A stretch of 64,000 nucleotides of DNA, taken from an uncultured delta proteobacterium. GTDB taxonomy: Bacteria > Desulfobacterota > RBG-13-43-22. The notes beneath the pieces are model-generated. The model did no database searches. It saw only the letters and a list, made by a program, of their open reading frames with translations, and was not told the origin of the DNA. This document shows, in pieces, positions 37,908 through 47,734 of this stretch. Position 1 is the stretch's first letter, and each line of letters opens with the position of its first letter. A program made the position numbers and the translations under genes. The stretch lies in NCBI GenBank assembly GCA_963802945.1, contig CAWDKY010000027.1, positions 96,001 to 160,000 of the forward strand. The letters are read 5' to 3'.

Positions 37908-38080
37908 TAAGGTCTCGTTGTTTTCCTGATGTCTTAACGAGGGGTTCCCATCAATACTTCTGGGGAGGAAAAACAAACTTCCGGGTTTCAAAAAAAGTTT
38001 GATCGGTTATGGTGAGGAAGGCGGCAAAGAAATAACCTGTTGAAATCGATTAGATTCGCGATGGGGATGGTCTGTCTTAA

Positions 38081-38230
38081 CAGGATGCGGAAAAACTCAT
38101 TTTTACAGGTTGCTCAAAAAGGTTCAGATACAAGACGCCCGAAATCCCGAGGAATGAGTCGTACATAGAAGTACGTCGCAATGACGAGGGATGAGGGCAA
38201 CGCAGTAGATGGGCCTTTTTCAGCAACTTG
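38081..38230. mobile_element. 150-bp MITE-like element flanked by TTAA
   Basis: CAGGATGCGGAAAAA and CAGGTTGCTCAAAAA left ends vs TTTTTCAGCAACTTG right end; TTAA at 38077-38080 and 38231-38234. Confidence 0.7.
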
Positions 38231-38375
38231 TTAAGGTTTCCTCTTTCACCTCCTCTGGTCAGACTTGGCGATGCCGTGGGCTCCGTGAAAAAAATTAAGG
38301 GAGAGCCATAAACCGGATGGAGGGGCAGGGTTATGTCTCTTGTCGGCCAGGGGATGAAGAACCAATCGGTATGGT

Positions 38376-38819
38376 CTATAAGGCCTTTATTTCAGAGGTG
38401 CAACTGGGACACCGTGTGGCCTTGATCGGGATCACGGAAAAACAAAATGGGCATTCTTTGGTGGTCAGTGCGGCAGGTTCCGGTTCCTTTTTAAGTTTGT
38501 TGATCTGGCGGATCGTTAAGAAGATGACGAAGGCGACGATTAAAAAATCAATAATGGTATTGAAAAAAATACCATATTTGATCGTCGCCGCTCCGGCTTT
38601 TTTGGCCCCTTCCAAGGTGGCAAAAGATTGATTGGAAAGGGTTATAAAAAGATTATTGAAATCCACCTTACCCAAAAGTAGACCTATGGGTGGCATCAAG
38701 ACATCATTCACAAAAGAGGTGATAATCTTACCAAAGGCCGCTCCGATAATGATGCCCACGGCCATGTCCATTACATTTCCCCGCATAGCAAATTCTTTAA
38801 ATTCTTTCCACATATTCAA
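38376..38819 (-). CDS. mscL: Large-conductance mechanosensitive channel with C-terminal Zn ribbon
   Basis: [26 protein letters not shown]; CPFC...CPSC. Confidence 0.95.
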
Positions 38820-38843
38820 TCCTCCTTATAATAAGTTTAAAGA

Positions 38844-38924
38844 TTAACTGCTCAAAACCTTAAAGGGACTGTTGGTTGAGTTATAAAACTCGGTGTAGGC
38901 TTTATTTTGTTTTTCCGGTAACAT
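38844..38924 (-). pseudogene. Short gene-start fragment, possibly carboxymuconolactone-decarboxylase-like
   Basis: Strong RBS AGGAGG then MLPEKQNKAYTEFYNST..., stop after 26 codons. Confidence 0.3.
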
Positions 38925-38938
38925 GATTCCTCCTTTTA

Positions 38939-39487
38939 TCAAATCAACCCAGGGATAAACATCTTGGTGGATTTTCGGTAGCGGGAATATTCGTCCCCGA
39001 ATCTGGCCATGTTCTCCTCTTCTTCCGCCTTAGCCGTAACTATCAGAAAGGCGGATACACCCAGGATCAATGACCCGCTCAACAAGGTCGTGTGTTTTAA
39101 AAAAATCCCCCAACCTAGCAATAACAATGAGGAGTAAAGGGGATGACGGATATATTTGTAGGCCCCGATGGTCACTAAATTAGCGGTATTTTCAAATCCC
39201 AAATCGGAAGAGCCTTGGACAGGGCCCTGGGGTTTTCCGATCTTTCGGAGGAGATAAAATCCATGGATGGCCAGAATAAGGGAAGCCGTCAACAAAGCCC
39301 ATGAAATCAGTTGAAAAACGGAATAAGGATGTTCGATCCAATAACTTATATTGATCAATAAAAGGATCAGTAGCAGCTCAAAGGCAAAAAAGCGGTAAAA
39401 CCCATGGGAGCGAGGCCTGGGTAATGATTGCCGGGAAATAAAAATAATTCCCAAAGAAACAACAGCAAAAATAATCCCTTTGACCAT
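38939..39487 (-). CDS. Isoprenylcysteine carboxylmethyltransferase/PEMT family membrane protein
   Basis: LVTIGAYKYIRHPLY, EEE...FGDEY. Confidence 0.85.
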   Translation of the reverse strand: MVKGIIFAVVSLGIIFISRQSLPRPRSHGFYRFFAFELLLILLLINISYWIEHPYSVFQLISWALLTASLILAIHGFYLLRKIGKPQGPVQGSSDLGFENTANLVTIGAYKYIRHPLYSSLLLLGWGIFLKHTTLLSGSLILGVSAFLIVTAKAEEEENMARFGDEYSRYRKSTKMFIPGLI

Positions 39488-39634
39488 GGTCGGCCCTTCC
39501 TTAATCGGGTAATCAGTGCAGTGTATCTATCTTCCCTTACCATATCTCTTTTATCATAATTCCCGCCAAACCGGAACTCCAGATTGAAAAGACTGGATTC
39601 TGGATCAAGCCTGCCTTAGTGTCTTTTCTTCTTG

Positions 39635-39702
39635 GATTAACGCTGGCTCTCGCCTGTGAGAGCCGCGTAGTGGCCCGAATCCGGTGCAGAAGCAAGTTAG
39701 GC
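39635..39702 (-). repeat. attC site
   Basis: Minus strand GCCTAAC (contains the stop of 39697-40182)...GTTAATC. Confidence 0.8.
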
Positions 39703-40182
39703 CATAGGTCTTATCCAACCCAAGGGCAGTATGCACGGCACTTTCTTCTTATATTCACGATATCCGGAACCAAACACGGACTCCAAATAGTTTTCCTCTT
39801 TTTTGACCAATTGACGTAAGATGAGGTACATGAATATCGGTATGGTCAGCGCTATCCAACTGTTTACTAAAAGGGCTATTCCGGGGACAATAAAAACCAC
39901 CCATGATGCATATAACGGATGGCGACAACATCTGTAAATGCCGTTGGTTACAAGCTTATCAGCATTGTAGGCGCGCATAACTGTTTTAGCCGAAATTATA
40001 TAGAATGGTATTCCAATCACTATCAGCGCCATTCCAAGGATAATCAGAAACCGATGAGGTACGAAATCTATTTGGAAGACAGGATGGAAATAGCGGCTTA
40101 TTACGATAGTCACCATTCCGTAGCCGATCGATAGAGCCGCAAATATTGGACCTGAACCCCATCTGCTCATTTTTTCTTCCAT
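39697..40182 (-). CDS. Cassette: ICMT/PEMT family membrane methyltransferase
   Basis: LVTNGIYRCCRHPLY, EENYL..FGSGY; stop inside attC R''. Confidence 0.85.
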   Translation of the reverse strand: MEEKMSRWGSGPIFAALSIGYGMVTIVISRYFHPVFQIDFVPHRFLIILGMALIVIGIPFYIISAKTVMRAYNADKLVTNGIYRCCRHPLYASWVVFIVPGIALLVNSWIALTIPIFMYLILRQLVKKEENYLESVFGSGYREYKKKVPCILPLGWIRPMA

Positions 40183-40203
40183 ATCTATTATCCATTCAAA
40201 GTT

Positions 40204-40276
40204 ATTTAACTACCCAGTTGCACCTGACCGCAGGCTTGCGCGCTATCAGTATAATCAATATCAAAAGCCGTTATGG
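40204..40276 (-). repeat. Degenerate or chimeric attC site
   Basis: CCATAAC (stop of 40271-40876)...GTTAAAT; arms pair poorly. Confidence 0.55.
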
Positions 40277-40876
40277 GACTTGCCTTTTCTGCATCAGGCA
40301 CCTCCAGGCCCGGGGTGGATTCGGGTGATGAGATCCGAAATGGCCGGAGGTAAGTGAAAGAACCTCAAAATAAGGCTCCACGGCCAAGACGATATCTCCG
40401 GCGGCCCGTTGAGGTGGACCAGGACCTTGGCGATGCTCATCAGCGTTGCCAACGAGGGTCAGCCACAGGCCGGCTTCTTCCAAATGAGCAGCGACATTTT
40501 TGGCAAAGCTTCTTCGATCATTTTCAGAACCGAAGGAGTGAAAACAGCCCCGGTCAAATACAAAACCAAAAGGAGCACCTTCAATTTTGTTCTTAAGAAA
40601 ATCAACCAGCCTGAAATCGCATTCGACCTTGGCTTCAGCAGCTTTTTCTTTGGCCTTCTCTATAGCAATCTCCGAAGTGTCGGTAGCAATAACCTGAAAG
40701 CGGTTCTGGGCAAGCCAGATGGAATTGTCTCCGGTTCCACAGCCGATATCTAAGACTTTGCAGCTCAGAATAGGTTTTTGGGTCACCACTTCGATAAGAT
40801 TGAAATCCGGCTGGCCAATGTCCCAAGGCGTGTTCCCTGATTGGTATCTTTCTTGGTAACGCTCTTCAACGGTCAT
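40271..40876 (-). CDS. Cassette: class I SAM methyltransferase (TPMT/TehB-like)
   Basis: TPWD, VLDIGCGTG, FDRGCFH. Confidence 0.88.
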   Translation of the reverse strand: MTVEERYQERYQSGNTPWDIGQPDFNLIEVVTQKPILSCKVLDIGCGTGDNSIWLAQNRFQVIATDTSEIAIEKAKEKAAEAKVECDFRLVDFLKNKIEGAPFGFVFDRGCFHSFGSENDRRSFAKNVAAHLEEAGLWLTLVGNADEHRQGPGPPQRAAGDIVLAVEPYFEVLSLTSGHFGSHHPNPPRAWRCLMQKRQVP

Positions 40877-40905
40877 CTAATCACTCCTCGTCATAAGTTA
40901 GCCAT

Positions 40906-40930
40906 AAGAGTCAAGAGTAGACTCGACCCC
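40906..40930. repeat. Y1/RAYT-type end motif
   Basis: AAGAGTCAAGAGTAGACTCGACCCC, 21/25 identical to 42184-42208. Confidence 0.6.
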
Positions 40931-40966
40931 ATCCTCAAGAACACAAAAAGCTCGGGCAGCGGCCTT

Positions 40967-41374
40967 CTACTCGGAACCGGAGCCATAAACATCAAGATAG
41001 CGCGAAGTTGCTCCCCAGTTCATAAGCCTGGTATAGCCGGCCTGTTCGAGGTCCTTGATGACCATCTGTGCCCTTCCGCCGGTTTCACAGGTCAGTATGA
41101 GATACTGGGTTTTTGGTATCTCACCGAGCCTTTCCATGATCTGGCTCGACGGAAAGCTCTTGGCAGTCGGGATGTGCGACTTTTGATAGGCATCTTCGGG
41201 ACGGACATCGATGATCCAAATGTCTTCCCGCGGTTTTTCTATAAGCTCCTTTAGCTTGGCCGGTTCAAGGTACTTTTTTAATATTCCCCCATCACTACCC
41301 ACATACCCCTCGTAACAACCCGCGAGCAAGGCCACAGAAATCAAAACAATGAACCAGGCGACATGTTTTTTCAT
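40967..41374 (-). CDS. Rhodanese-domain lipoprotein
   Basis: Signal MKKHVAWF...LLAGC; IIDVR, SHIP, CETGGRA. Confidence 0.85.
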   Translation of the reverse strand: MKKHVAWFIVLISVALLAGCYEGYVGSDGGILKKYLEPAKLKELIEKPREDIWIIDVRPEDAYQKSHIPTAKSFPSSQIMERLGEIPKTQYLILTCETGGRAQMVIKDLEQAGYTRLMNWGATSRYLDVYGSGSE

Positions 41375-41643
41375 ATGGTATAATCCCCCCGATAAATGTC
41401 TTTGCGATGGCCGACCTTTACTACCCAAACCGTAAGGTCCTTGTCTTGAATGGAGTATACAATTCGATATCGTCCTTGACGGAGGCGATACCTTTCCTGG
41501 CCGGTCAGCTTTTCACAATCTGATGGCCGGGGATCTTCGGCCAGAGTTCTGATCCGCCGGAGTATCTTCTTCAAATCGCTCTTGGCTATGGCCGCAAAAT
41601 CCTTCTCAACAGATTCTCGGAAAAAGATTTTATATGCGGCCAT
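41371..41643 (-). CDS. RelE/ParE family toxin
   Basis: YRLRQGRYRIVY, VVKVGHRKDIY. Confidence 0.9.
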   Translation of the reverse strand: MAAYKIFFRESVEKDFAAIAKSDLKKILRRIRTLAEDPRPSDCEKLTGQERYRLRQGRYRIVYSIQDKDLTVWVVKVGHRKDIYRGDYTI

Positions 41644-41866
41644 CTTTTTTCAGTCTTTTTACCATCTCATCATAACGGATCAAAGGCTCTCCCGCCCTCC
41701 CTTCAAGCGCTGCAAAATCCTCGGCGTCTTCCACCAAGGCTTCTCTGACGGCCTTATTGATAAGCTCCGATACGGAGGTTGAGGTCTCAACGGCCTTTAG
41801 TCGCAGGGCTTTATGAAGCTCGGGTTTTAAATAGACCGTAGCTCTCTTGACTTGTGTCGACATCAT
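41630..41866 (-). CDS. CopG/RHH antitoxin
   Basis: RATVYL...LHKALRLKA...SVSELIN; overlaps the toxin gene. Confidence 0.85.
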   Translation of the reverse strand: MMSTQVKRATVYLKPELHKALRLKAVETSTSVSELINKAVREALVEDAEDFAALEGRAGEPLIRYDEMVKRLKKDGRI

Positions 41867-41890
41867 GGCACCTCCAGATGTAGTTAAATA

Positions 41891-41919
41891 ACCATAACAC
41901 TATAACGCTATTATGTCAA
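41891..41919 (-). promoter_or_regulatory. Sigma70 promoter of the TA cassette
   Basis: TTGACA-17bp-TATGGT upstream of the antitoxin. Confidence 0.7.
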
Positions 41920-41941
41920 TGACGTTACATTAAGTCTTTAA

Positions 41942-42088
41942 AACCAACGACGAAATTCAGGGCGAGGCGGGAGAATCCCACCGATCCTGTGCAATGCAAT
42001 GTTAGGCCGCATATGGGTACTTAGGCTAAGTTAACTTCCATTGGTCTCAAACAAAATTCAAATATCAGGGCTGACCCTGATATTTCTC
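41942..42088 (-). repeat. Composite attC + hairpin repeat, copy 1 (attC 41942-42007)
   Basis: Highly similar to 43930-44075 and 44550-44695; ends in AAATATCAGGG-CTGA-CCCTGATATTT hairpin. Confidence 0.9.
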
Positions 42089-42155
42089 CACTTCTCCCTC
42101 GATTCATGACATGGTACCAGGCATCCGGATATTCTATTCTCAACGGTCTGGACAT
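42021..42155 (-). pseudogene. Truncated Y1 HUH (RAYT/IS200-like) transposase
   Basis: Manual translation MSRPLRIEYPDAWYHVMNRGRSGE, then runs into the repeat and stops after 44 codons. Confidence 0.8.
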
Positions 42156-42183
42156 ATTTCAATTCTTATCATAACGTACCAAC

Positions 42184-42208
42184 AAGAGTCAAAAGCAGAC
42201 TTGCCCCC
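42184..42208. repeat. Y1/RAYT-type end motif upstream of the transposase fragment
   Basis: Minus strand GGGGGCAAGTCTGCTTTTGACTCTT, 28 bp before the transposase ATG. Confidence 0.6.
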
Positions 42209-42310
42209 CTCCGACCAATTTGTAATAAATTACAAGACCATGCACACTTACATAAAGCCGCGACGAAAGTCCGGTCGGTGTTTACTGACTTCTTATACCT
42301 GTAGATCATT

Positions 42311-42643
42311 TCATAGTCTTTCAATTAGCTTGTAATAATCCTTGATTGTACGAAGGGATTCCATCATGGTTTGGAACAAGATCCAACTGAGGACAAGGAT
42401 TCCTATGGTTAGTCCAATCTTCCATGCCCGCGTCGTTTGTGGACGCCACCAAATCAGGGGCAACGCCAGAGGTCCCACAGCGCAGACTGCGAAGATAATG
42501 AAGGATTTTCGGAAATACCATGGAGTCTTTTCTTCTGCAAGACGTGAGGGGATGGAGGCATCCAGAAACTCACCACAGTGTTTACATTTTATAGCTTCGT
42601 CTTGAATATCTTCAGCGCAGAAGGGACACTTTTTCATTATCAT
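42311..42643 (-). CDS. Cassette: zinc-ribbon membrane protein
   Basis: [10 protein letters not shown]...KCKHCGE plus two TM helices; start trimmed to after the attC. Confidence 0.8.
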
Positions 42644-42651
42644 CTCTCTTG

Positions 42652-42715
42652 GTAGAACGTTGCAGGTCACCGGGAGCCCGATTTTTGGGTGATTCGATGG
42701 AGCCAATTGTTAGCG
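42652..42715 (-). repeat. attC site
   Basis: CGCTAAC...GTTCTAC immediately after the stop of 42717-43250. Confidence 0.8.
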
Positions 42716-42716
42716 C

Positions 42717-43250
42717 TCACTCGTTCGCTTTGGTTGACCCCGTCTCCCTGATCCAAGGCTTTAGCCTTGGAATCCACATCGGTACATTCCGTCTATAAAC
42801 GAGGTATTCTTCACCAAAACGTCTTACCAATCCTGGCTCTTCTGATAACCGAAAATAGAAGGTATTCCCTATACCAAAGATCAGGGCCCACATGAATAAT
42901 AACCATGATCCAAAAAAAATAGTTTCCCCGATGAGCATAAAAAGAACCCCAGAAATCATAGGATTGCGGACATAGCGGTAGACACCGTCGGTAACGAGCT
43001 TTTGAGTTGGATTCCATGGAGCGAGCGTTCCTCTACCCTTTTTCATGAATAATCGAATCGTGATGACAAGAAGCAAAAGTCCGACGCAAAAGGCAAGGGT
43101 ACCCAGGGGAGCTTGAATAAAGGGAACAGGAAGATAGAGTCTTACCCCGAAAGGATGGAAACGGACGACCTGTAGAAATGGAACGATCACTACAACTGTG
43201 ATCGGCAGAATCAGAGAACAAAGTTGTCGAAGAAGGTTTGTGCCAGCCAT
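42717..43250 (-). CDS. Cassette: ICMT/PEMT family membrane methyltransferase
   Basis: GRGTLAPW, LVTDGVYRYVRNPM, EEPGL..RFGEEY. Confidence 0.88.
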   Translation of the reverse strand: MAGTNLLRQLCSLILPITVVVIVPFLQVVRFHPFGVRLYLPVPFIQAPLGTLAFCVGLLLLVITIRLFMKKGRGTLAPWNPTQKLVTDGVYRYVRNPMISGVLFMLIGETIFFGSWLLFMWALIFGIGNTFYFRLSEEPGLVRRFGEEYLVYRRNVPMWIPRLKPWIRETGSTKANE

Positions 43251-43308
43251 AGTAGATCTTCATAGCATAAGAGATTTGTTGCGCCAGGGTTCAACCTCCA
43301 CCTTCGAC

Positions 43309-43386
43309 ATATAACAACCAAACTCAACTGCGGCCCTGGCGAGGCAAAGCGGCGACTGGGCCGTCGGTTGGAGCGCCTTGTTCGGT
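43309..43386 (-). repeat. attC site
   Basis: ACCGAAC AAGGC GCTCCAACCGAC...GTTGAGTTTGGTT GTTATAT. Confidence 0.85.
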
Positions 43387-43533
43387 GCTTATCCCCTGAG
43401 ATAGATATTCAACCTTACCGTTTGTCCAAATTGGTATTTTTAAATTATTCTTCCTTGCATTTTCAGCAACCTTGACGGCGGCACGTTGCAAAGCCTTAAA
43501 TCCTAAGACTGTGTATGGATTATGTACTTTCAT
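43324..43533 (-). CDS. Small protein, probable partner/antitoxin of zeta-like ATPase
   Basis: ALQRAAVKV...IPIWTNGKV; ATGA-coupled to the upstream P-loop remnant. Confidence 0.55.
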   Translation of the reverse strand: MKVHNPYTVLGFKALQRAAVKVAENARKNNLKIPIWTNGKVEYLSQGISTEQGAPTDGPVAALPRQGRS

Positions 43534-43623
43534 TTTCCTGTCTCCGATTCATCAAGAACCACTTGCAAATGTCGTTTTGCCCGAACCATTAGGCCCTGCT
43601 ATTATGTAACATTTTTTTTCCAA
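43530..43623 (-). pseudogene. Internally deleted zeta-toxin/AAA-like P-loop gene
   Basis: RBS GAGG, TTG start, MEKKCYIIAGPNGSGKTTFA, then an out-of-frame short tail VVLDESETGK*. Confidence 0.75.
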
Positions 43624-43643
43624 AGTTAAAATACCTCTCTATC

Positions 43644-43709
43644 ACCAAACGGTGGAACTCACGGCGAGGCGGGAGCATCCCGCCGATCCCGTACAGTGAA
43701 ATGTTAGGC
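43644..43709 (-). repeat. attC site, same family as the composite-repeat attC but without the tail
   Basis: GCCTAAC...GTTTGGT, 66 bp, core GAGGCGGGAG.ATCCCGCCGATCCCGT shared. Confidence 0.88.
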
Positions 43710-43913
43710 AAGTTTTTTTTGTCGTCTGATGATTTCCGCCAATGATCTTAAGGCTTGATTCACTGAGTCATGGTCAGGGAAAACTTTCGCAACGTCCGGC
43801 TCAATGACCACGGTATTTGTTCCCTCTTCGTACATCTTTGAGTATTTTCCCCGAATACCCTTGCTGAAATCGTATTCCTCAAGCATGTCCGGATCTTTTT
43901 GCATTCTCTTCAT
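43704..43913 (-). CDS. BrnA-like antitoxin, orphan
   Basis: EYDFSKGIRGKY...PDVAKVF..SVNQALR. Confidence 0.7.
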   Translation of the reverse strand: MKRMQKDPDMLEEYDFSKGIRGKYSKMYEEGTNTVVIEPDVAKVFPDHDSVNQALRSLAEIIRRQKKLA

Positions 43914-43929
43914 ATTGTTTCCTTATCGT

Positions 43930-44075
43930 GCATAACGACGGAATTCACGGGGAGGCGGGAGAATCCCGCCGATCCCGTGCAGTACAATGTTAGGCAGTAT
44001 ATAAATAATTAGGCTAAGTTAACTTCCATTGGTCTCAACCAAAATTCAGATGTCAAGGGCTGACCCTGATTTCTC
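43930..44075 (-). repeat. Composite attC + hairpin repeat, copy 2 (attC 43930-43995)
   Basis: GCCTAAC...GTTATGC plus tail ending TCAAGGGCTGACCCTGATTTCTC. Confidence 0.9.
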
Positions 44076-44099
44076 CGCTTATCCAGCGTGATGTTATAT
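44076..44099 (-). repeat. Truncated native attC of the hicBA cassette
   Basis: R'' ATATAAC 3 bp after the hicA stop, complementary to the cassette R' GTTATAT; only 17 further bases before the repeat. Confidence 0.7.
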
Positions 44100-44102
44100 T
44101 TT

Positions 44103-44330
44103 CTACATTAATTCAAGGAAAAGATCGACATCCATCCGAGCTTGCTTTAGAATATGGGAAAGTGTCGAACGTTTGATTGGTCTGTGGGCCGGAATTGTCA
44201 GTTTTAGCACTTCATCGTGGATATGCTTTTGCATTCTGATGTGGCTGCCCTTTTGCCGGACTATCACCCATCCGTCCCGCCGAAGTGCTCGAATTACTTT
44301 GTCATATGCAACGCTTGGGATTTTCGTCAT
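44103..44330 (-). CDS. hicA: HicA family toxin
   Basis: RQKGSH, TIPAH, TLSHILKQA. Confidence 0.9.
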   Translation of the reverse strand: MTKIPSVAYDKVIRALRRDGWVIVRQKGSHIRMQKHIHDEVLKLTIPAHRPIKRSTLSHILKQARMDVDLFLELM

Positions 44331-44530
44331 ACTGCGACTTCTAAGATCTCTGTACCCGGGACTATGTTCATGTCGTCAACGACAGGCTCAATGTATAGCT
44401 CAATTGCTTCCTTGATGTTTTCCAAGGCTTCCTCTTTTGTATCTCCCTCGCTAATACAACCAGGAAGGCTTGGAACATAGGCAGTAAACCCACCTTCTTC
44501 GCTTGGCTCAAAGATAATTTTAAGTTTCAT
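44327..44530 (-). CDS. hicB: HicB family antitoxin
   Basis: GGFTAYVPSLPGCISEGDTKEEALENIKEAI. Confidence 0.9.
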   Translation of the reverse strand: MKLKIIFEPSEEGGFTAYVPSLPGCISEGDTKEEALENIKEAIELYIEPVVDDMNIVPGTEILEVAV

Positions 44531-44549
44531 TTTTCAATCCTCCATTAAA

Positions 44550-44695
44550 ATATAACGATAGAACTTACGGGGAGGCGGGAGAATCCCGCCGATCCCGTGC
44601 AGTGAAATGTCAGGCCGCATATGGGTACTTAGGCTAATTTAACTTCCCTTGGTCTCAATCATAATTCAAATGTCAAGGGCTGACCCTGATTTCTC
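44550..44695 (-). repeat. Composite attC + hairpin repeat, copy 3 (attC 44550-44615)
   Basis: GCCTGAC...GTTATAT plus tail ending TCAAGGGCTGACCCTGATTTCTC. Confidence 0.9.
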
Positions 44696-44725
44696 TCGTG
44701 ACTGATCTGTTTTTCTGGCCCTCTG

Positions 44726-45250
44726 CTACTTGAGAGACTTTAGCCACTTCTTCCGTTCTTTCTCGTCGGGCACTGCGAACTCTTCCAACTTCTGACGCAC
44801 TCTTCCCACTCTTACAGGGTCATACGACTCCAACACAAGCTTCGGCGTCAAGTGCTCCATCTCGAGCACGAGTTTGATGTTGGTCCGAAGATGCTCGACA
44901 GTATTACGTGTTTCATCTCTGGCCCGCTCTGCCTCGACCTTTGCGAGTTTGGCTTCTGCATTGGCCTTCAGTACGCCTTCTCTTGCCGCGGCAGCTTGCC
45001 TCAGAGCATCGCCTGCTGACTGAACAGCCCGGTCCGCTGAATTCCTTTGCCTGGTGGCTTCGTGGAATTGCAGCCAGGATAAGGTAACGAGAGCTATTGA
45101 CAGGATCATGGAGACGACGCTAATGAAACCGGCAACAGACTCCAACTTTGATGAAAAGTAACCTTGAGTTCTCTTACAGTGAAAGCAGACTCTTGCGCCT
45201 TCCGGAATGGACATCCGACAGTGTCGGCAGGGCTTGGTTTTATCGGTCAT
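44726..45250 (-). CDS. Cassette: zinc ribbon, TM and coiled-coil hypothetical protein
   Basis: CRHC...CFHC, one TM helix, Ala-rich coil. Confidence 0.7.
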   Translation of the reverse strand: MTDKTKPCRHCRMSIPEGARVCFHCKRTQGYFSSKLESVAGFISVVSMILSIALVTLSWLQFHEATRQRNSADRAVQSAGDALRQAAAAREGVLKANAEAKLAKVEAERARDETRNTVEHLRTNIKLVLEMEHLTPKLVLESYDPVRVGRVRQKLEEFAVPDEKERKKWLKSLK

Positions 45251-45278
45251 GCTTCAATCCTTCAGAAACTGTTTCTTT

Positions 45279-45370
45279 AGCGAACGCAATGTATCGGCCG
45301 CACGGGACAACCAGCATGAATGAAAAACAAAGCGGGCTAATATCGTGTCGGCTGGATGTTTTTGTTAGAT
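45279..45370 (-). repeat. attC site
   Basis: ATCTAAC AAAAA CATCCAGCCGAC...CGGCCGATACATTGC GTTCGCT. Confidence 0.85.
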
Positions 45371-46101
45371 TGCAGGAATGGCTTTAGATTGAGTTTAATA
45401 TTTTCTGCTAATGCATCTATATAGTCATTGCTCATTCTGCCCGGATGGTACGCTTCATAAAAAATCTGTGCCCTGTATTTGTATTTAATTATTCCAGTAT
45501 CAGAAATTTCTTGTCCCCCAGAAAATTTATTTGCCAAAAGCCCATATGTTTTTGTAAAAAATACGTTGATCGGGGCCTTTACGACATCGATTTTTTTGAA
45601 TATATAGTCCATCTTTGTACATTTTTCCCGCAAATTCCATTGATGTTTGGGGTCGTAACATTTGCACGCATTGCTTAACGCCACATAATCCAATAGTTCA
45701 AACCACCAAAGGTCATCTTTCTGGATAGATAGCCGCATGATTTTATATATCCTATTCCAAAAACCCGGCATATATGCCGTTTGGAAAAAACAAAACCAGA
45801 GGGGTTGCGCTATTGTTTTATCTACGCTGAAACGATGCTCATAAGCCCATTCGTAACTTTCTAAACCTACAAAAAAAATCAAAGGGGTTTTACCCACCCA
45901 ATATATCCCCTGCGGCCCATCTATTTCATCGCCAAATTCGGCCATACAGTCTGCCACACACCCAGGCATATTATTTTTGTAAAATGCCCAAATAGCTTCA
46001 TACTTAGTCTGAACAGCCGATACACGTTCCAAAAAATTGCCGCTCATGTCATTTTCAATCTTTTTTAACTTTTCTAAATACTTCGCGATTTCTTCATCCA
46101 T
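45337..46101 (-). CDS. Cassette: hypothetical protein, weakly uracil-DNA-glycosylase-like
   Basis: AT-rich 254 aa ORF; FFVGLE and YHPG motifs. Confidence 0.5.
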   Translation of the reverse strand: MDEEIAKYLEKLKKIENDMSGNFLERVSAVQTKYEAIWAFYKNNMPGCVADCMAEFGDEIDGPQGIYWVGKTPLIFFVGLESYEWAYEHRFSVDKTIAQPLWFCFFQTAYMPGFWNRIYKIMRLSIQKDDLWWFELLDYVALSNACKCYDPKHQWNLREKCTKMDYIFKKIDVVKAPINVFFTKTYGLLANKFSGGQEISDTGIIKYKYRAQIFYEAYHPGRMSNDYIDALAENIKLNLKPFLQSNKNIQPTRY

Positions 46102-46113
46102 AATATTATCTCA

Positions 46114-46212
46114 ATCTAACGCAAATTTCACCGGCCGGCGCCGCCAAAGCCAACCGAGCGAAGGCGAGAAGACATACTTCTTACGCCGGTCCGGTGCAAA
46201 TTGTTGTTCGCG
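46114..46212 (-). repeat. attC site
   Basis: CGCGAAC AACAA TTTGCACCGGACCGGCG...CGCCGGCCGGTGAAATTTGC GTTAGAT. Confidence 0.88.
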
Positions 46213-46738
46213 GAAACTCGCTGTCTGACGGCTGAGTGCGAAAATATTTTTCAAACGCCAAATACCACTCAAGGTCGGAACCTCGGAGATCTCCTTTCCT
46301 CTGGCCCGCGAGGATCATGAACAGCGAGACAAACCCGTCCCAGTATCGCGGCTCCCCATACTTGCCCCTTACGGGTTTGGCAGGATTGCTCCGGAGATAT
46401 TCCTTTGGGCTCCGATTGCTTTTGGTCATGTTGCACTTATTGCAGGAGGTCACGAAATTTCTCTCGTCGTGCGCGCCACCCGACGAGTGCGGCTCGACGT
46501 GATCTATCACGGCTGCGAGGTGATCCAGCATCGGTGCTGCGTCACGGCGATAACGGAAATCGTAGTACGCCAGCTGACGCGGGTATTTTTGTTCTCGCGC
46601 AAATCCTTCGAGATATTTCAGTGCGGGAGCGAATACCGTTGGCCGTTGGCACCAGTGGCAGAGCCAGCCGTCTCTAAATAGCACACGGACCTGAACGGCA
46701 ATTGGGATCTTTGCTCTGCCTCGACCACGCTTGTCCAT
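46181..46738 (-). CDS. Cassette: HNH endonuclease
   Basis: RDGWLCHWC, DHVEP..GG, NFVTSCNKCN..K. Confidence 0.88.
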   Translation of the reverse strand: MDKRGRGRAKIPIAVQVRVLFRDGWLCHWCQRPTVFAPALKYLEGFAREQKYPRQLAYYDFRYRRDAAPMLDHLAAVIDHVEPHSSGGAHDERNFVTSCNKCNMTKSNRSPKEYLRSNPAKPVRGKYGEPRYWDGFVSLFMILAGQRKGDLRGSDLEWYLAFEKYFRTQPSDSEFPRTTICTGPA

Positions 46739-46755
46739 GTTTCAGTTCCTCTTAC

Positions 46756-46782
46756 CGCGAACAATTAATATACGAAGTTCAT
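46756..46782 (-). other. Array-proximal recombination junction (attI-like)
   Basis: ATGAACTTCGTATA TTAATT GTTCGCG; GTTCGCG complements the first cassette's R'' CGCGAAC; no attC stem upstream. Confidence 0.55.
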
Positions 46783-47084
46783 TTTTTACAATTTTTCTCG
46801 ATATTATAACACCCCATCATATTTAAAAAAAGGTAAAATTTACATAATAATCAATAGATACATATTGATTTGATGAAGCGGAGGACTTCTGGACCAAATG
46901 GTTGTTCAATCCGACGGCAAATCCGGGGTAACCAAATGGAATAGGGGACAAAAACAAAAAAATATTGACTTTGTCCCCCCTCCCATGTTAGACAAATGCG
47001 GTCAATATTATAACCCGAGGATTATTAAAAAAATAAACGGGTTGGGAAGCCCGCCGTAACATTTTTGTGTCGGGTTGAGGCTTC

Positions 47085-47309
47085 GTGCAGGAAGATACCA
47101 GAAAATACATTAAGTTGCTGGCCTTAGTCAGTACCATGGGAATATCCATGGGCCTGGCTCTAGTAATTGCCATTGTCGTGGGTTATTATCTGGATAAATG
47201 GTTTAAAACCAGCCCGGTTTTCTTTCTAATATTTATGGTCTTGGGGATAGTAGCCGGATTTAGAAATATCTACGTGATTATGAAAAGGACTGAAAAAGAT
47301 TTTAAATGA
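47085..47309 (+). CDS. AtpZ/AtpI family protein
   Basis: GYYLDKWF, LGIVAGFRN; first gene of the F0 operon. Confidence 0.85.
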   Translation: MQEDTRKYIKLLALVSTMGISMGLALVIAIVVGYYLDKWFKTSPVFFLIFMVLGIVAGFRNIYVIMKRTEKDFK

Positions 47310-47734
47310 ACAGGGGGTTGTCTATTTGGAAAGAAGGATCGGTCGAAGATCCTTTTCTTAACAAAGTCCGGTTTATGAACGGGGTGATTTTTGCCCTGTT
47401 ACTGCTGGGCAGTATGATTCTGATGCCCCCCTTTTTTGCTCTTGGTGTCAGTATTGGTGGTTTGATCATTCTGGTCAATTTTCATCTCCTGTCCCGGATT
47501 TTAAGAAAAGCCTTTATCCCCGATCACCTGGCCAGCCCCAAGTCGGTTATTGTTAAATACTATCTACGGTTGTTGGGCACCGGCATCGTGTTGTATTTTT
47601 TAATTGCCAAAAGGCTGGTCGATCCCCTGGGCTTGGTGGTCGGATTGTCGGTGGTCGTCATCAGCCTGACCCTTCTGGGGTTTAATGAAATGCGAAAAAT
47701 CCTTTTTAAACCGTCATGCCCCCCAGGGGCGTGA
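47306..47734 (+). CDS. atpI: ATP synthase subunit I
   Basis: Four TM helices, KYYLR, LVVGLS; operon position. Confidence 0.8.
   Translation: MNRGLSIWKEGSVEDPFLNKVRFMNGVIFALLLLGSMILMPPFFALGVSIGGLIILVNFHLLSRILRKAFIPDHLASPKSVIVKYYLRLLGTGIVLYFLIAKRLVDPLGLVVGLSVVVISLTLLGFNEMRKILFKPSCPPGA

Follow-up and report, generated by a model that had tools for sequence, protein, structure and literature searches.

Mobile DNA in or beside the attC sites of integron cassette arrays is known from the IS1111-attC group and from the group IIC-attC introns, the latter having been proposed as a route to cassette formation. There the agent is a DEDD transposase, or a ribozyme with a reverse transcriptase, and the attC is interrupted; in the arrangement described here a repeat end lies upstream of an intact attC. 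It was found in a stretch of 64,000 nt (the window in what follows) from an uncultured delta proteobacterium (Desulfobacterota, RBG-13-43-22; GenBank assembly GCA_963802945.1, contig CAWDKY010000027.1, positions 96,001 to 160,000, or C27:96001-160000 of a 4.37-Mb genome in 72 contigs). The window holds three copies of a repeated module made up of two known parts: a 66-nt attC of a cluster of attC sites lacking integron-integrases (CALIN) and, about 70 nt upstream of it, the solo left end of a TIRtron (GGGTCAGCCCTTGACAT plus about 45 nt of subterminal sequence), an element named after its terminal inverted repeats (TIRs). The module replaces native cassette 3′ ends or attCs. The joined arrangement and the overwriting of attCs were not found in the literature searched; what is new is a solo repeat that precedes an attC of the same strand by 34–79 nt, with at least five attC types, together with the replacement of cassette 3′ ends, to which a congener (genome G005) adds two contexts.

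In the literature searched, the family is known from two comparative papers only (Di Nocera et al., 2013, PMC3733652; Quentin et al., 2018, PMC6006769). Their TIRYT proteins and TIRtrons come with TIRs that have GGGGWSAS in common and are found singly, as dimers or in groups; among the TnpA_REP-like proteins TIRYT forms subclass 2.1, whose members carry a Bac_DnaA_C or helix-turn-helix (HTH) tail (Quentin et al., 2018). The elements seen here are alike in their product (Y1_Tnp with Bac_DnaA_C), in inverted repeats of about 25 nt that start GGGGTCAG and fit GGGGWSAS, and in occurring as singles and dimers, but differ in that a solo TIR unit is joined to an attC and forms one border of a module present in several copies. 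Neither integrons nor attC sites are connected with TIRs in the text of these papers that was available, and we found no literature link between TIRYT repeats and attC, although the TIR sequences listed in the figures and supplements of PMC3733652 and PMC6006769 may tell whether this exact TIR has been catalogued. The nearest statement to the present arrangement, in the accessible part of PMC7923331, concerns an IS200/605 element beside a CALIN, with speculation about an interplay between the two.

Three further comparisons are useful. The RAYT/REP/REPIN and IS200/IS605 systems belong to the same Y1 HUH superfamily, and in them the gene likewise has short non-autonomous repeats on either side, inverted with respect to each other. 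The repeat described here, however, carries no GTAG tag and has no significant hairpin in two of the three module copies, and it differs from IS200/IS605 in having TIRs of about 25 nt rather than subterminal hairpins and a product of 326 aa with a DnaA_C-like domain rather than a TnpA of about 150 aa; no fixed target of 4–5 nt was found among its flanks. Gene-less cassettes with promoter activity are known from Vibrionaceae superintegrons; like these, the module is a short non-coding unit ending in an attC within an array, and its TIR provides a TTGACA box, but it has no attC bounding it on the 5′ side, no promoter in our scan, and its origin is in a transposon end.

A repeat search recovered the modules as one family of three direct repeats of 144 nt (41944-42087, 43932-44075 and 44552-44695), the outer two being 78% and 88% identical to the middle copy; the 63-nt attC part forms a four-copy family, its fourth member (43648-43710) being an attC alone. 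Read on the minus strand, the unit consists of a purine-rich flank (GYGGAGAAAT or GAGAAAT), TCAGGGTCAGCCCTTGACAT, a spacer of about 55 nt and the 66-nt attC (GCCTAAC...GTT), the TIR core being GGGTCAGCCC. In copy 1 (41942..42089) the attC is at 41942-42007 (GCCTAAC...GTTGGTT), the core at 42068-42077 and the flank, GGAGAAAT, at 42082-42089; copy 2 (43930..44078) has its attC at 43930-43995 (GCCTAAC...GTTATGC), a 55-nt spacer, the core at 44057-44066 and the flank GCGGAGAAAT at 44069-44078; and in copy 3 (44550..44696) the attC at 44550-44615 (GCCTGAC...GTTATAT) is followed by the spacer, the core at 44677-44686 and the flank GAGAAAT. A preliminary description of this DNA, made from its letters alone, had noted three co-oriented, near-identical units of about 146 nt, and these are borne out, as the only copies in the genome: the blastn search of the unit that it had proposed, run against all 72 contigs, returned the three full copies and the lone attC, and nothing else. 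The alignment likewise agrees that similarity stops after GTT, with a different R′ each time (GTTGGTT, GTTATGC, GTTATAT). The hairpin reported at the other end fared less uniformly. In copy 1 the core sits inside a perfect 11-bp hairpin (42060-42085; −10 kcal/mol, z −5.1), but the TIR region of copy 2 (−4.1 kcal/mol, z −0.7) and that of copy 3 (−3.8 kcal/mol, z −0.9) fold no better than shuffles, 45/200 and 31/200 of which, respectively, folded at least as well.

The right-hand edge of the module is that of a genuine integron attC, with the cassette boundary at G/TT. The R″/R′ boxes of the three copies (GCCTAAC/GTTGGTT, GCCTAAC/GTTATGC and, with one mismatch, GCCTGAC/GTTATAT) correspond to RYYYAAC/GTTRRRY, and the 66-nt sequence folds at −14.6 and −16.8 kcal/mol, with z −4.1 on both strands. 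A covariance model (R1), built from 10 attC seeds with a structure written by hand and run over the 64-kb window with filters off, recovered all three module attCs and scored the minus strand higher: copy 1, a non-seed, gave 22.6 bits (E 0.0017); copy 2, a seed, 36.9 bits on the minus vs 20.7 on the plus strand; and copy 3, a non-seed, 18.8 bits (E 0.019). The lone attC of the same type (43644..43709, minus strand), which has the stop codon of the upstream gene inside its R″, was also found as a non-seed (25.9 bits, E 0.00022), and the next-best match in the window after the attCs had an E of 0.055. R1 misses some attC-like sites recognized by eye (42650-42716, the 3′ site of a 254-aa gene, and the sequence after a methyltransferase gene). 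RNAalifold gave no consensus on the first attC alignment, and four home-made attC detectors (fold, helix/alignment and constrained-fold based) were unspecific or missed known sites; a permissive fold-based one was kept solely for a contrast of upstream with downstream sequences, given below. Evidence also comes from a comparison with the congener. The identity of a cassette encoding an ICMT-type protein (ICMT-c) begins at GTTAT in both genomes, but in the window the cassette follows an attC of another type (ACCGAAC...GTTTGGT; 43317..43386, minus strand; a seed, with 33 bits for R1 on 43339-43386), whereas in G005 it follows the module attC, so the right edge is a true integrase-type cassette junction, as had been claimed. 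Two other readings of the module were discarded: that the spacer is a remnant of the start codon region of a TIRYT gene, to which its similarity is weak, and that one long attC runs from ATATAAC to a GTTAACT inside the spacer, since by eye these boxes do not pair.

The feature at the left-hand edge is the left TIR, GGGTCAGCCCTTGACAT, of TIRtrons, which encode TIRYT, a protein with Y1_Tnp and a DnaA_C-like HTH. The repeat of the family as a whole reads (G)GGGTCAG, with G at position −1 in 52/68 solo and 21/23 doublet instances, and the module TIRs read AGGGTCAG, agreeing with GGGGWSAS at 7/8 positions. One complete element with 26-nt TIRs was recognized (L112). Three near-identical Y1 genes of this genome (on C16, C33 and C30) have sharp ends consisting of a related 25-nt inverted repeat, GGGTCAGGTCTATTTTCTTGACATT ... 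AATGTTGAAAAAATAGACCTGACCCC, and a third variant of the repeat flanks, in inverted orientation, a paralogue on C32 (326 aa; Y1_Tnp 44.9 and Bac_DnaA_C 40.5 bits) which is by tblastn the closest full-length relative of a truncated gene starting at window position 42155, with 21/24 N-terminal residues identical. There are 10 matches to PF01797 over the cut-off in the genome, including open frames of 326-340 aa. The association with Y1 genes, whose absence would have spoken against the Y1/RAYT-type end of the preliminary description, is therefore present, as in the complete element L112; the assignment to a Y1 (HUH) system stands, with a core that flanks Y1_Tnp + Bac_DnaA_C genes, but the structure is a TIR and not the subterminal hairpin of IS200/IS605 or REP. 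Likewise, the full-length Y1 genes that it suggested looking for were found, but neither intI nor a Y1 gene bearing the TIR variant of the modules was found in this genome.

The same repeat is more widely distributed. A metagenome scan for GGGTCAGCCCTTGACRT gave at least 117 stretches, from which 80 loci were examined; among the matches listed there were 92 exact instances, 6 directly upstream of a Y1-like start (defined as M-x(1-2)-[PQT]-[LIFV]-R-[ILVM], e.g. MARPLRI), 23 in inverted doublets and 63 solo. GGGTCWGCCCTTGACAT occurs in 27/401 sampled genomes of the phylum, and a reversed control pattern in none; an independent genome set yielded 58 TIR instances, of which 40 were solo, 10 beside a Y1-like start and 8 in doublets. 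The doublets (23/92 in the metagenome, again among the matches listed, and 8/58 in the genomes) are a point of likeness to REPINs. Two inverted doublets of the same TIR are found in the present genome (C14:141477-141556 and C14:143797-143872), with 18-nt arms about 45-50 nt apart; each follows closely on the stop codon of one of two paralogous genes, and they resemble REPINs. Five copies of a TIR variant ending TTTGCATT were also seen (C14:129454, C15:516517, C16:111119, C19:1630, and C27:60893, upstream of the window start); in all but C16:111119 it is followed by about 60 further conserved nt (ctgctttctgtc.cc..ccctcagctaaat...), and this variant may be the end of another element family. Elsewhere (L203, G148:C9:41876-50036), four co-oriented TIR left ends are found in 8 kb, three of them followed by near-identical TIRYT starts, which suggests tandem TIRtrons. 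TIRYT genes that have GGGTCAGCCCTTGACAT as their own ends are present, for example, in loci L168, L169 and L203.

At the left edge the module cuts into its neighbours. In an alignment of five modules (the three described here and two from G005), similarity begins no more than about 12 nt from the outer end of the TIR and is preceded by five unrelated sequences; GAGAAAT is common to the modules, and copies 1 and 2 as well as one congener copy share another 3-4 nt beyond it (GYGGAGAAAT). Copy 1 interrupts a TIRYT (Y1_Tnp) gene after its first ~21-24 codons (42084..42155, minus strand; open reading frame 42021-42155). A related Y1 gene in metagenome run X2 continues past the position equivalent to 42094 and matches only through ...GGAGA; the copy 1 junction therefore lies somewhere in a short run of purines common to both, which leaves its exact base ambiguous, and the idea that GAGAAAT in copy 1 came purely from the target was dropped for the same reason. 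Copy 2 cuts, by its left end, the own attC of the hicBA cassette, of which 21-31 nt are kept (44079..44099, minus strand; recognized by eye, without an R1 match) with an R″, ATATAAC, that matches the 5′ TTATAT of that cassette. Copy 3 starts 29-36 nt past the point where a 174-aa gene stops, and the gap holds no AGCGAAC-type attC. These are the three contexts of the preliminary description, with somewhat different lengths from those first given. In the congener one module lies after the stop codon of a 247-aa gene (TAG/TGGAGAAATCAGGG), and in the other case the final codons of a methyltransferase gene run straight into the module. The homology between that gene and its relative in the present genome ends at ...ATGCAGAA, where the latter continues with a stop codon and a different downstream sequence and G005 has the TIR and the module attC; therefore the module replaced the native 3′ end there.

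GAGAAAT, at which the preliminary description saw similarity stop, is not a fixed cleavage motif of the family. The motif occurs in 0/91 metagenome flanks (among the matches listed) and 0/56 genome flanks of the wider family, and is confined to the module lineage. The general feature is a purine bias rich in GAAA, which is present in 31/91 flanks vs 5/79 controls in the metagenome (among the matches listed) and 27/56 vs 9/52 in the genome set; outside position −1, information content does not exceed 0.5 bit per position. A distant instance (L083) has GCGGAGAAAT before its TIR, and in four contigs of X5 a TIR like that of copy 3 has another flank starting at the GGGTCAG boundary. GAGAAAT may be an inherited subterminal sequence or a preferred target.

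A second TIR variant, 'type A' (GG(A)GGGGGCAAGTCTGCTTTTGACTC; 42186..42212, minus strand), is located upstream of the truncated TIRYT gene, where it abuts the 3′ region of a Zn-ribbon cassette without an R′. Contigs of X3 and X5 match the window from 42214 up and then differ, carrying the Zn-ribbon cassette without the type-A element; from their sequences they look like an empty site. A solo type-A TIR with the promoter-like stretch that normally precedes a TIRYT gene (40881..40934, minus strand; 74% identical to 42159-42212) lies directly upstream of the methyltransferase gene 40271-40876, exactly where the 5′ region of that gene is expected. The G005 orthologue has, by eye, an attC-like site upstream instead, as though the cassette gene of the window had received its upstream region from a transposon end. 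In an X3 contig, the type-A TIR runs straight into the 3′ end of the ICMT-c gene, the two meeting at a common GGGGTCAA (window 42200/42734) that in the window is ICMT-c coding sequence, the TIR junction having formed at a look-alike of the TIR terminus.

The explanation that we favour, with moderate confidence, is that the module is a composite cassette 3′ end, shaped by integrase exchange on the attC side and by repeat-anchored rearrangement on the TIR side. The right edge would have arisen by integron-integrase exchange, in ancestors or with the integrase supplied in trans. The left edge would be due to a separate process anchored at the repeat, which might be TIRYT-mediated end cleavage and strand transfer, TIRYT-mediated adjacent deletion, or recombination between dispersed repeat copies. 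The outcome would be that attCs of existing cassette genes are swapped or overwritten. A closer mechanistic coupling between TIRYT and attC, in which the repeat end homes to a folded single-stranded (ss) attC and the composite is then transplanted to the 3′ ends of other genes, is a tentative extension to which we give rather little weight; if true, it would amount to an excision-independent route by which genes exchange or acquire an attC.

The pairing of TIR and attC recurs outside the modules. In G005 the TIR with its ~45 nt is followed by two further attC types (L035, L036), and in a different family by a third (L033); it also occurs without the module's attC (L032, L035, L036). In an independent set of 46 loci (95.7 kb) from other genomes of the phylum, with filters off and L203 excluded, R1 found four distinct sites at E<0.05, three of which share their strand with a TIR and lie directly downstream of it (L176 at +69, L159 at +79 and L157 at +36). 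The distances form two classes, +34 to +37 (L044, L052, L083, L099, L045, L157) and +69 to +79 (L033, L176, L034, L035, L036, L159), which together cover at least five attC sequence types. Eight TIR-adjacent attCs compared by BLAST with their own loci had no further copies there. In three loci (L032, at G005:C94, L038 and L064) the TIR and the shared ~45 nt are followed by a conserved non-coding stretch of about 130 nt (GGGTCGATTATAATAAAC...GCCATTCAGAACATAGAAGGAG), found twice, 2 kb apart, in G005 and on two metagenome contigs; and in members of other families (L019 in G053, L161 in G370) a palindromic repeat that is not attC-like, GGATTCCCG-N6-8-CGGGAATGAC, follows the TIR.

Part of the support for the composite 3′ end as we read it has to be qualified, and other considerations weigh against it. 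Among loci L030-L116 (457 kb), 9 of 14 R1 matches at E<0.01 lay at +34 to +78 nt from a TIR on the same strand, but seven of these nine attCs were R1 seeds picked by eye (only L052 and L034 were not), so that the count is partly circular. The permissive fold-based detector placed an attC-like site downstream of 11/54 solo TIRs and upstream of 1/46 (Fisher P 0.0045), and in this genome 6/34 TIR-like sites have one of the 14 R1 sites no more than 2 kb away, where 0.39 would be expected (three of the six in one array), but related loci and copies within an array are not independent and all these P values, the binomial one included, overstate. In the independent set the pairing was seen at 3/40 solo TIRs; it is real and has a direction, but only a minority of the family shows it. 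No TIRYT gene with the GGGTCAGCCC TIR variant was found in this genome, the ends of those present being GGGTCAGGTC... or type A, and the best intI scores, 79.6 bits here and 79.7 in G005, fall short of the cut-off of 265, so any integrase action must be ancestral or supplied in trans. Biochemistry of TIRYT is absent from the available text of PMC3733652 and PMC6006769, and five rearrangements ending within a few nt of one another are demanding if recombination between repeats was the cause.

The preliminary description had seen in the unit a 'portable attC' that moves as a whole, with a Y1 enzyme acting at the repeat end and IntI at the attC end, and is grafted behind arbitrary DNA to create new cassettes. 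Both edges do lie exactly where the two enzyme classes act, five different upstream contexts are known from two genomes, three of them are genes whose sole attC is now that of the module, and TIR–attC pairs recur with several attC types. We nevertheless consider the idea unlikely. All the contexts are inside a cassette array, and each documented case overwrites a 3′ end there, none being in non-cassette DNA; two are overwrites of a native cassette 3′ end (the partial hicBA attC, and the stop codon and downstream sequence of the G005 methyltransferase gene), and among the cases examined there is no simple insertion with both target flanks kept. A Y1 enzyme and an integron integrase, moreover, exchange strands by chemically different routes, neither intI nor a cognate TIRYT was found in this genome, and the TIR with its ~45 nt also occurs apart from this attC, as noted above. 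At the opposite extreme the unit might be an ordinary duplicated cassette without an open reading frame, with an attC on both sides. It has indeed no reading frame, ends in an attC and sits in an array, but none of the five copies is preceded by a G/TT or a complete attC, and what does precede them is codon ~21-24 of a gene, an attC stump of 21-31 nt, the 3′ flank of a gene, a stop codon and a gene's last codons; sharing beyond GAGA, which would favour such a cassette, amounts to the 3-4 nt already mentioned, and we regard this as very improbable.

A more serious alternative, though still a rather doubtful one, is that the TIR unit is a passive regulatory passenger, kept because it ends transcription of the gene before it or drives the cassette after it, its copies and junctions being products of ordinary homologous recombination, gene conversion and deletion, with no part played by a transposase. 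The TIR has a perfect TTGACA, followed in full elements by a −10-like hexamer at about 17 nt, ahead of the TIRYT start, and gene-less promoter-active cassettes are known, as mentioned, from Vibrionaceae; but the promoter scan calls nothing at the module TIRs, which have ACCAAT or similar at the −10 positions, and the toxin–antitoxin cassette downstream has a strong promoter of its own. On the cassette strand of copies 1 and 3 a terminator scan flags the TIR stem with its T-rich tail, yet in copies 2 and 3 the stem does not reach significance. The orientation bias (11/54 vs 1/46) could reflect selection against antisense transcription, but homology-driven exchange alone does not put five left junctions at the outer end of the TIR. 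Homing to a target would account for the distances: TIRtron ends would insert singly at a set distance 5′ of a folded ssDNA attC, every TIR–attC pair being a separate insertion, and the three copies in the window would be later duplicates with adjacent deletions. In its favour are the two narrow offset classes over at least five attC types, the enrichment of TIR-like sites near attC in this genome, and reports of REP-type repeats inside specific palindromes (in the available text of PMC3733652 / PMC6006769). It is, however, improbable, as 37/40 solo TIRs of the independent set have no nearby attC, the inner side of the TIR faces the attC, contrary to insertion of a complete element beside it, and the short non-coding gaps by attCs are among the few permissive sites of an array, so that proximity may be survival bias.

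Integron research has yet to settle how genes acquire an attC and how cassettes exchange theirs, and a second ssDNA system, that of Y1 HUH elements, is here physically joined to attC, recurring across lineages in one orientation and in two narrow distance classes. If the coupling is enzymatic, the TIR left end with its attC would be a concrete substrate pair for attC turnover; if it reflects survival bias only, cassette arrays lacking an integrase are still remodelled by TIRtron ends. The poorly known TIRYT family also gains a first defined genomic niche.

The array itself consists of short, co-oriented minus-strand genes that fill the window from about 38 to 47 kb, as judged from open reading frames and Pfam, and includes hicBA, an RHH/ParE pair, an HNH gene and several methyltransferase genes. 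An Rfam search over 38000-47500 gave nothing relevant, only a sub-threshold isrK match. Among the sequencing runs listed for 41300-45300 there was none of RNA, and the four compared were DNA contigs with small shares. No intI (TIGR02249) was found in the genome, which is rated 100% complete, the best match reaching 79.6 bits against the cut-off of 265; the array is therefore a CALIN. Scores above the cut-off were obtained for intI in another congener, G004 (same genus), as well as in G021 and G053; with the Y1 genes noted above, both kinds of enzyme occur in the lineage, which is in favour of the composite 3′ end. The hicB–hicA toxin–antitoxin cassette (44103..44530, minus strand; HicA_toxin 61.5 and HicB_lk_antitox 48.5 bits) lies between module copies 3 and 2, and the 174-aa gene (44726..45250, minus strand), which belongs to no Pfam family, has module copy 3 in the place of an attC of its own. 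Directly downstream of copy 1 is a cassette for an RHH antitoxin and a ParE toxin (41371..41866, minus strand; ParE_toxin 47.5 bits, RHH families below the cut-off), with a promoter, TTGACA-17-TATGGT, matching at 10/12 positions (41919-41891). The ParE reading frame ends at 41371, and the likely start of the adjoining rhodanese-like lipoprotein (MKKHVAWF...) is 3 nt off (window 41371-41428); this leaves no room for an attC between them, so the array is not cleanly modular there. Further attC-like sites found by R1 (E<=0.01) at C37:12506-33384, at C28:43474 and 78072, and at C27:191596-193364 suggest that the genome holds several integrase-less cassette clusters. The one on C37 contains two copies of the TIR, one of which is fused to a different gene after three TIRYT codons.

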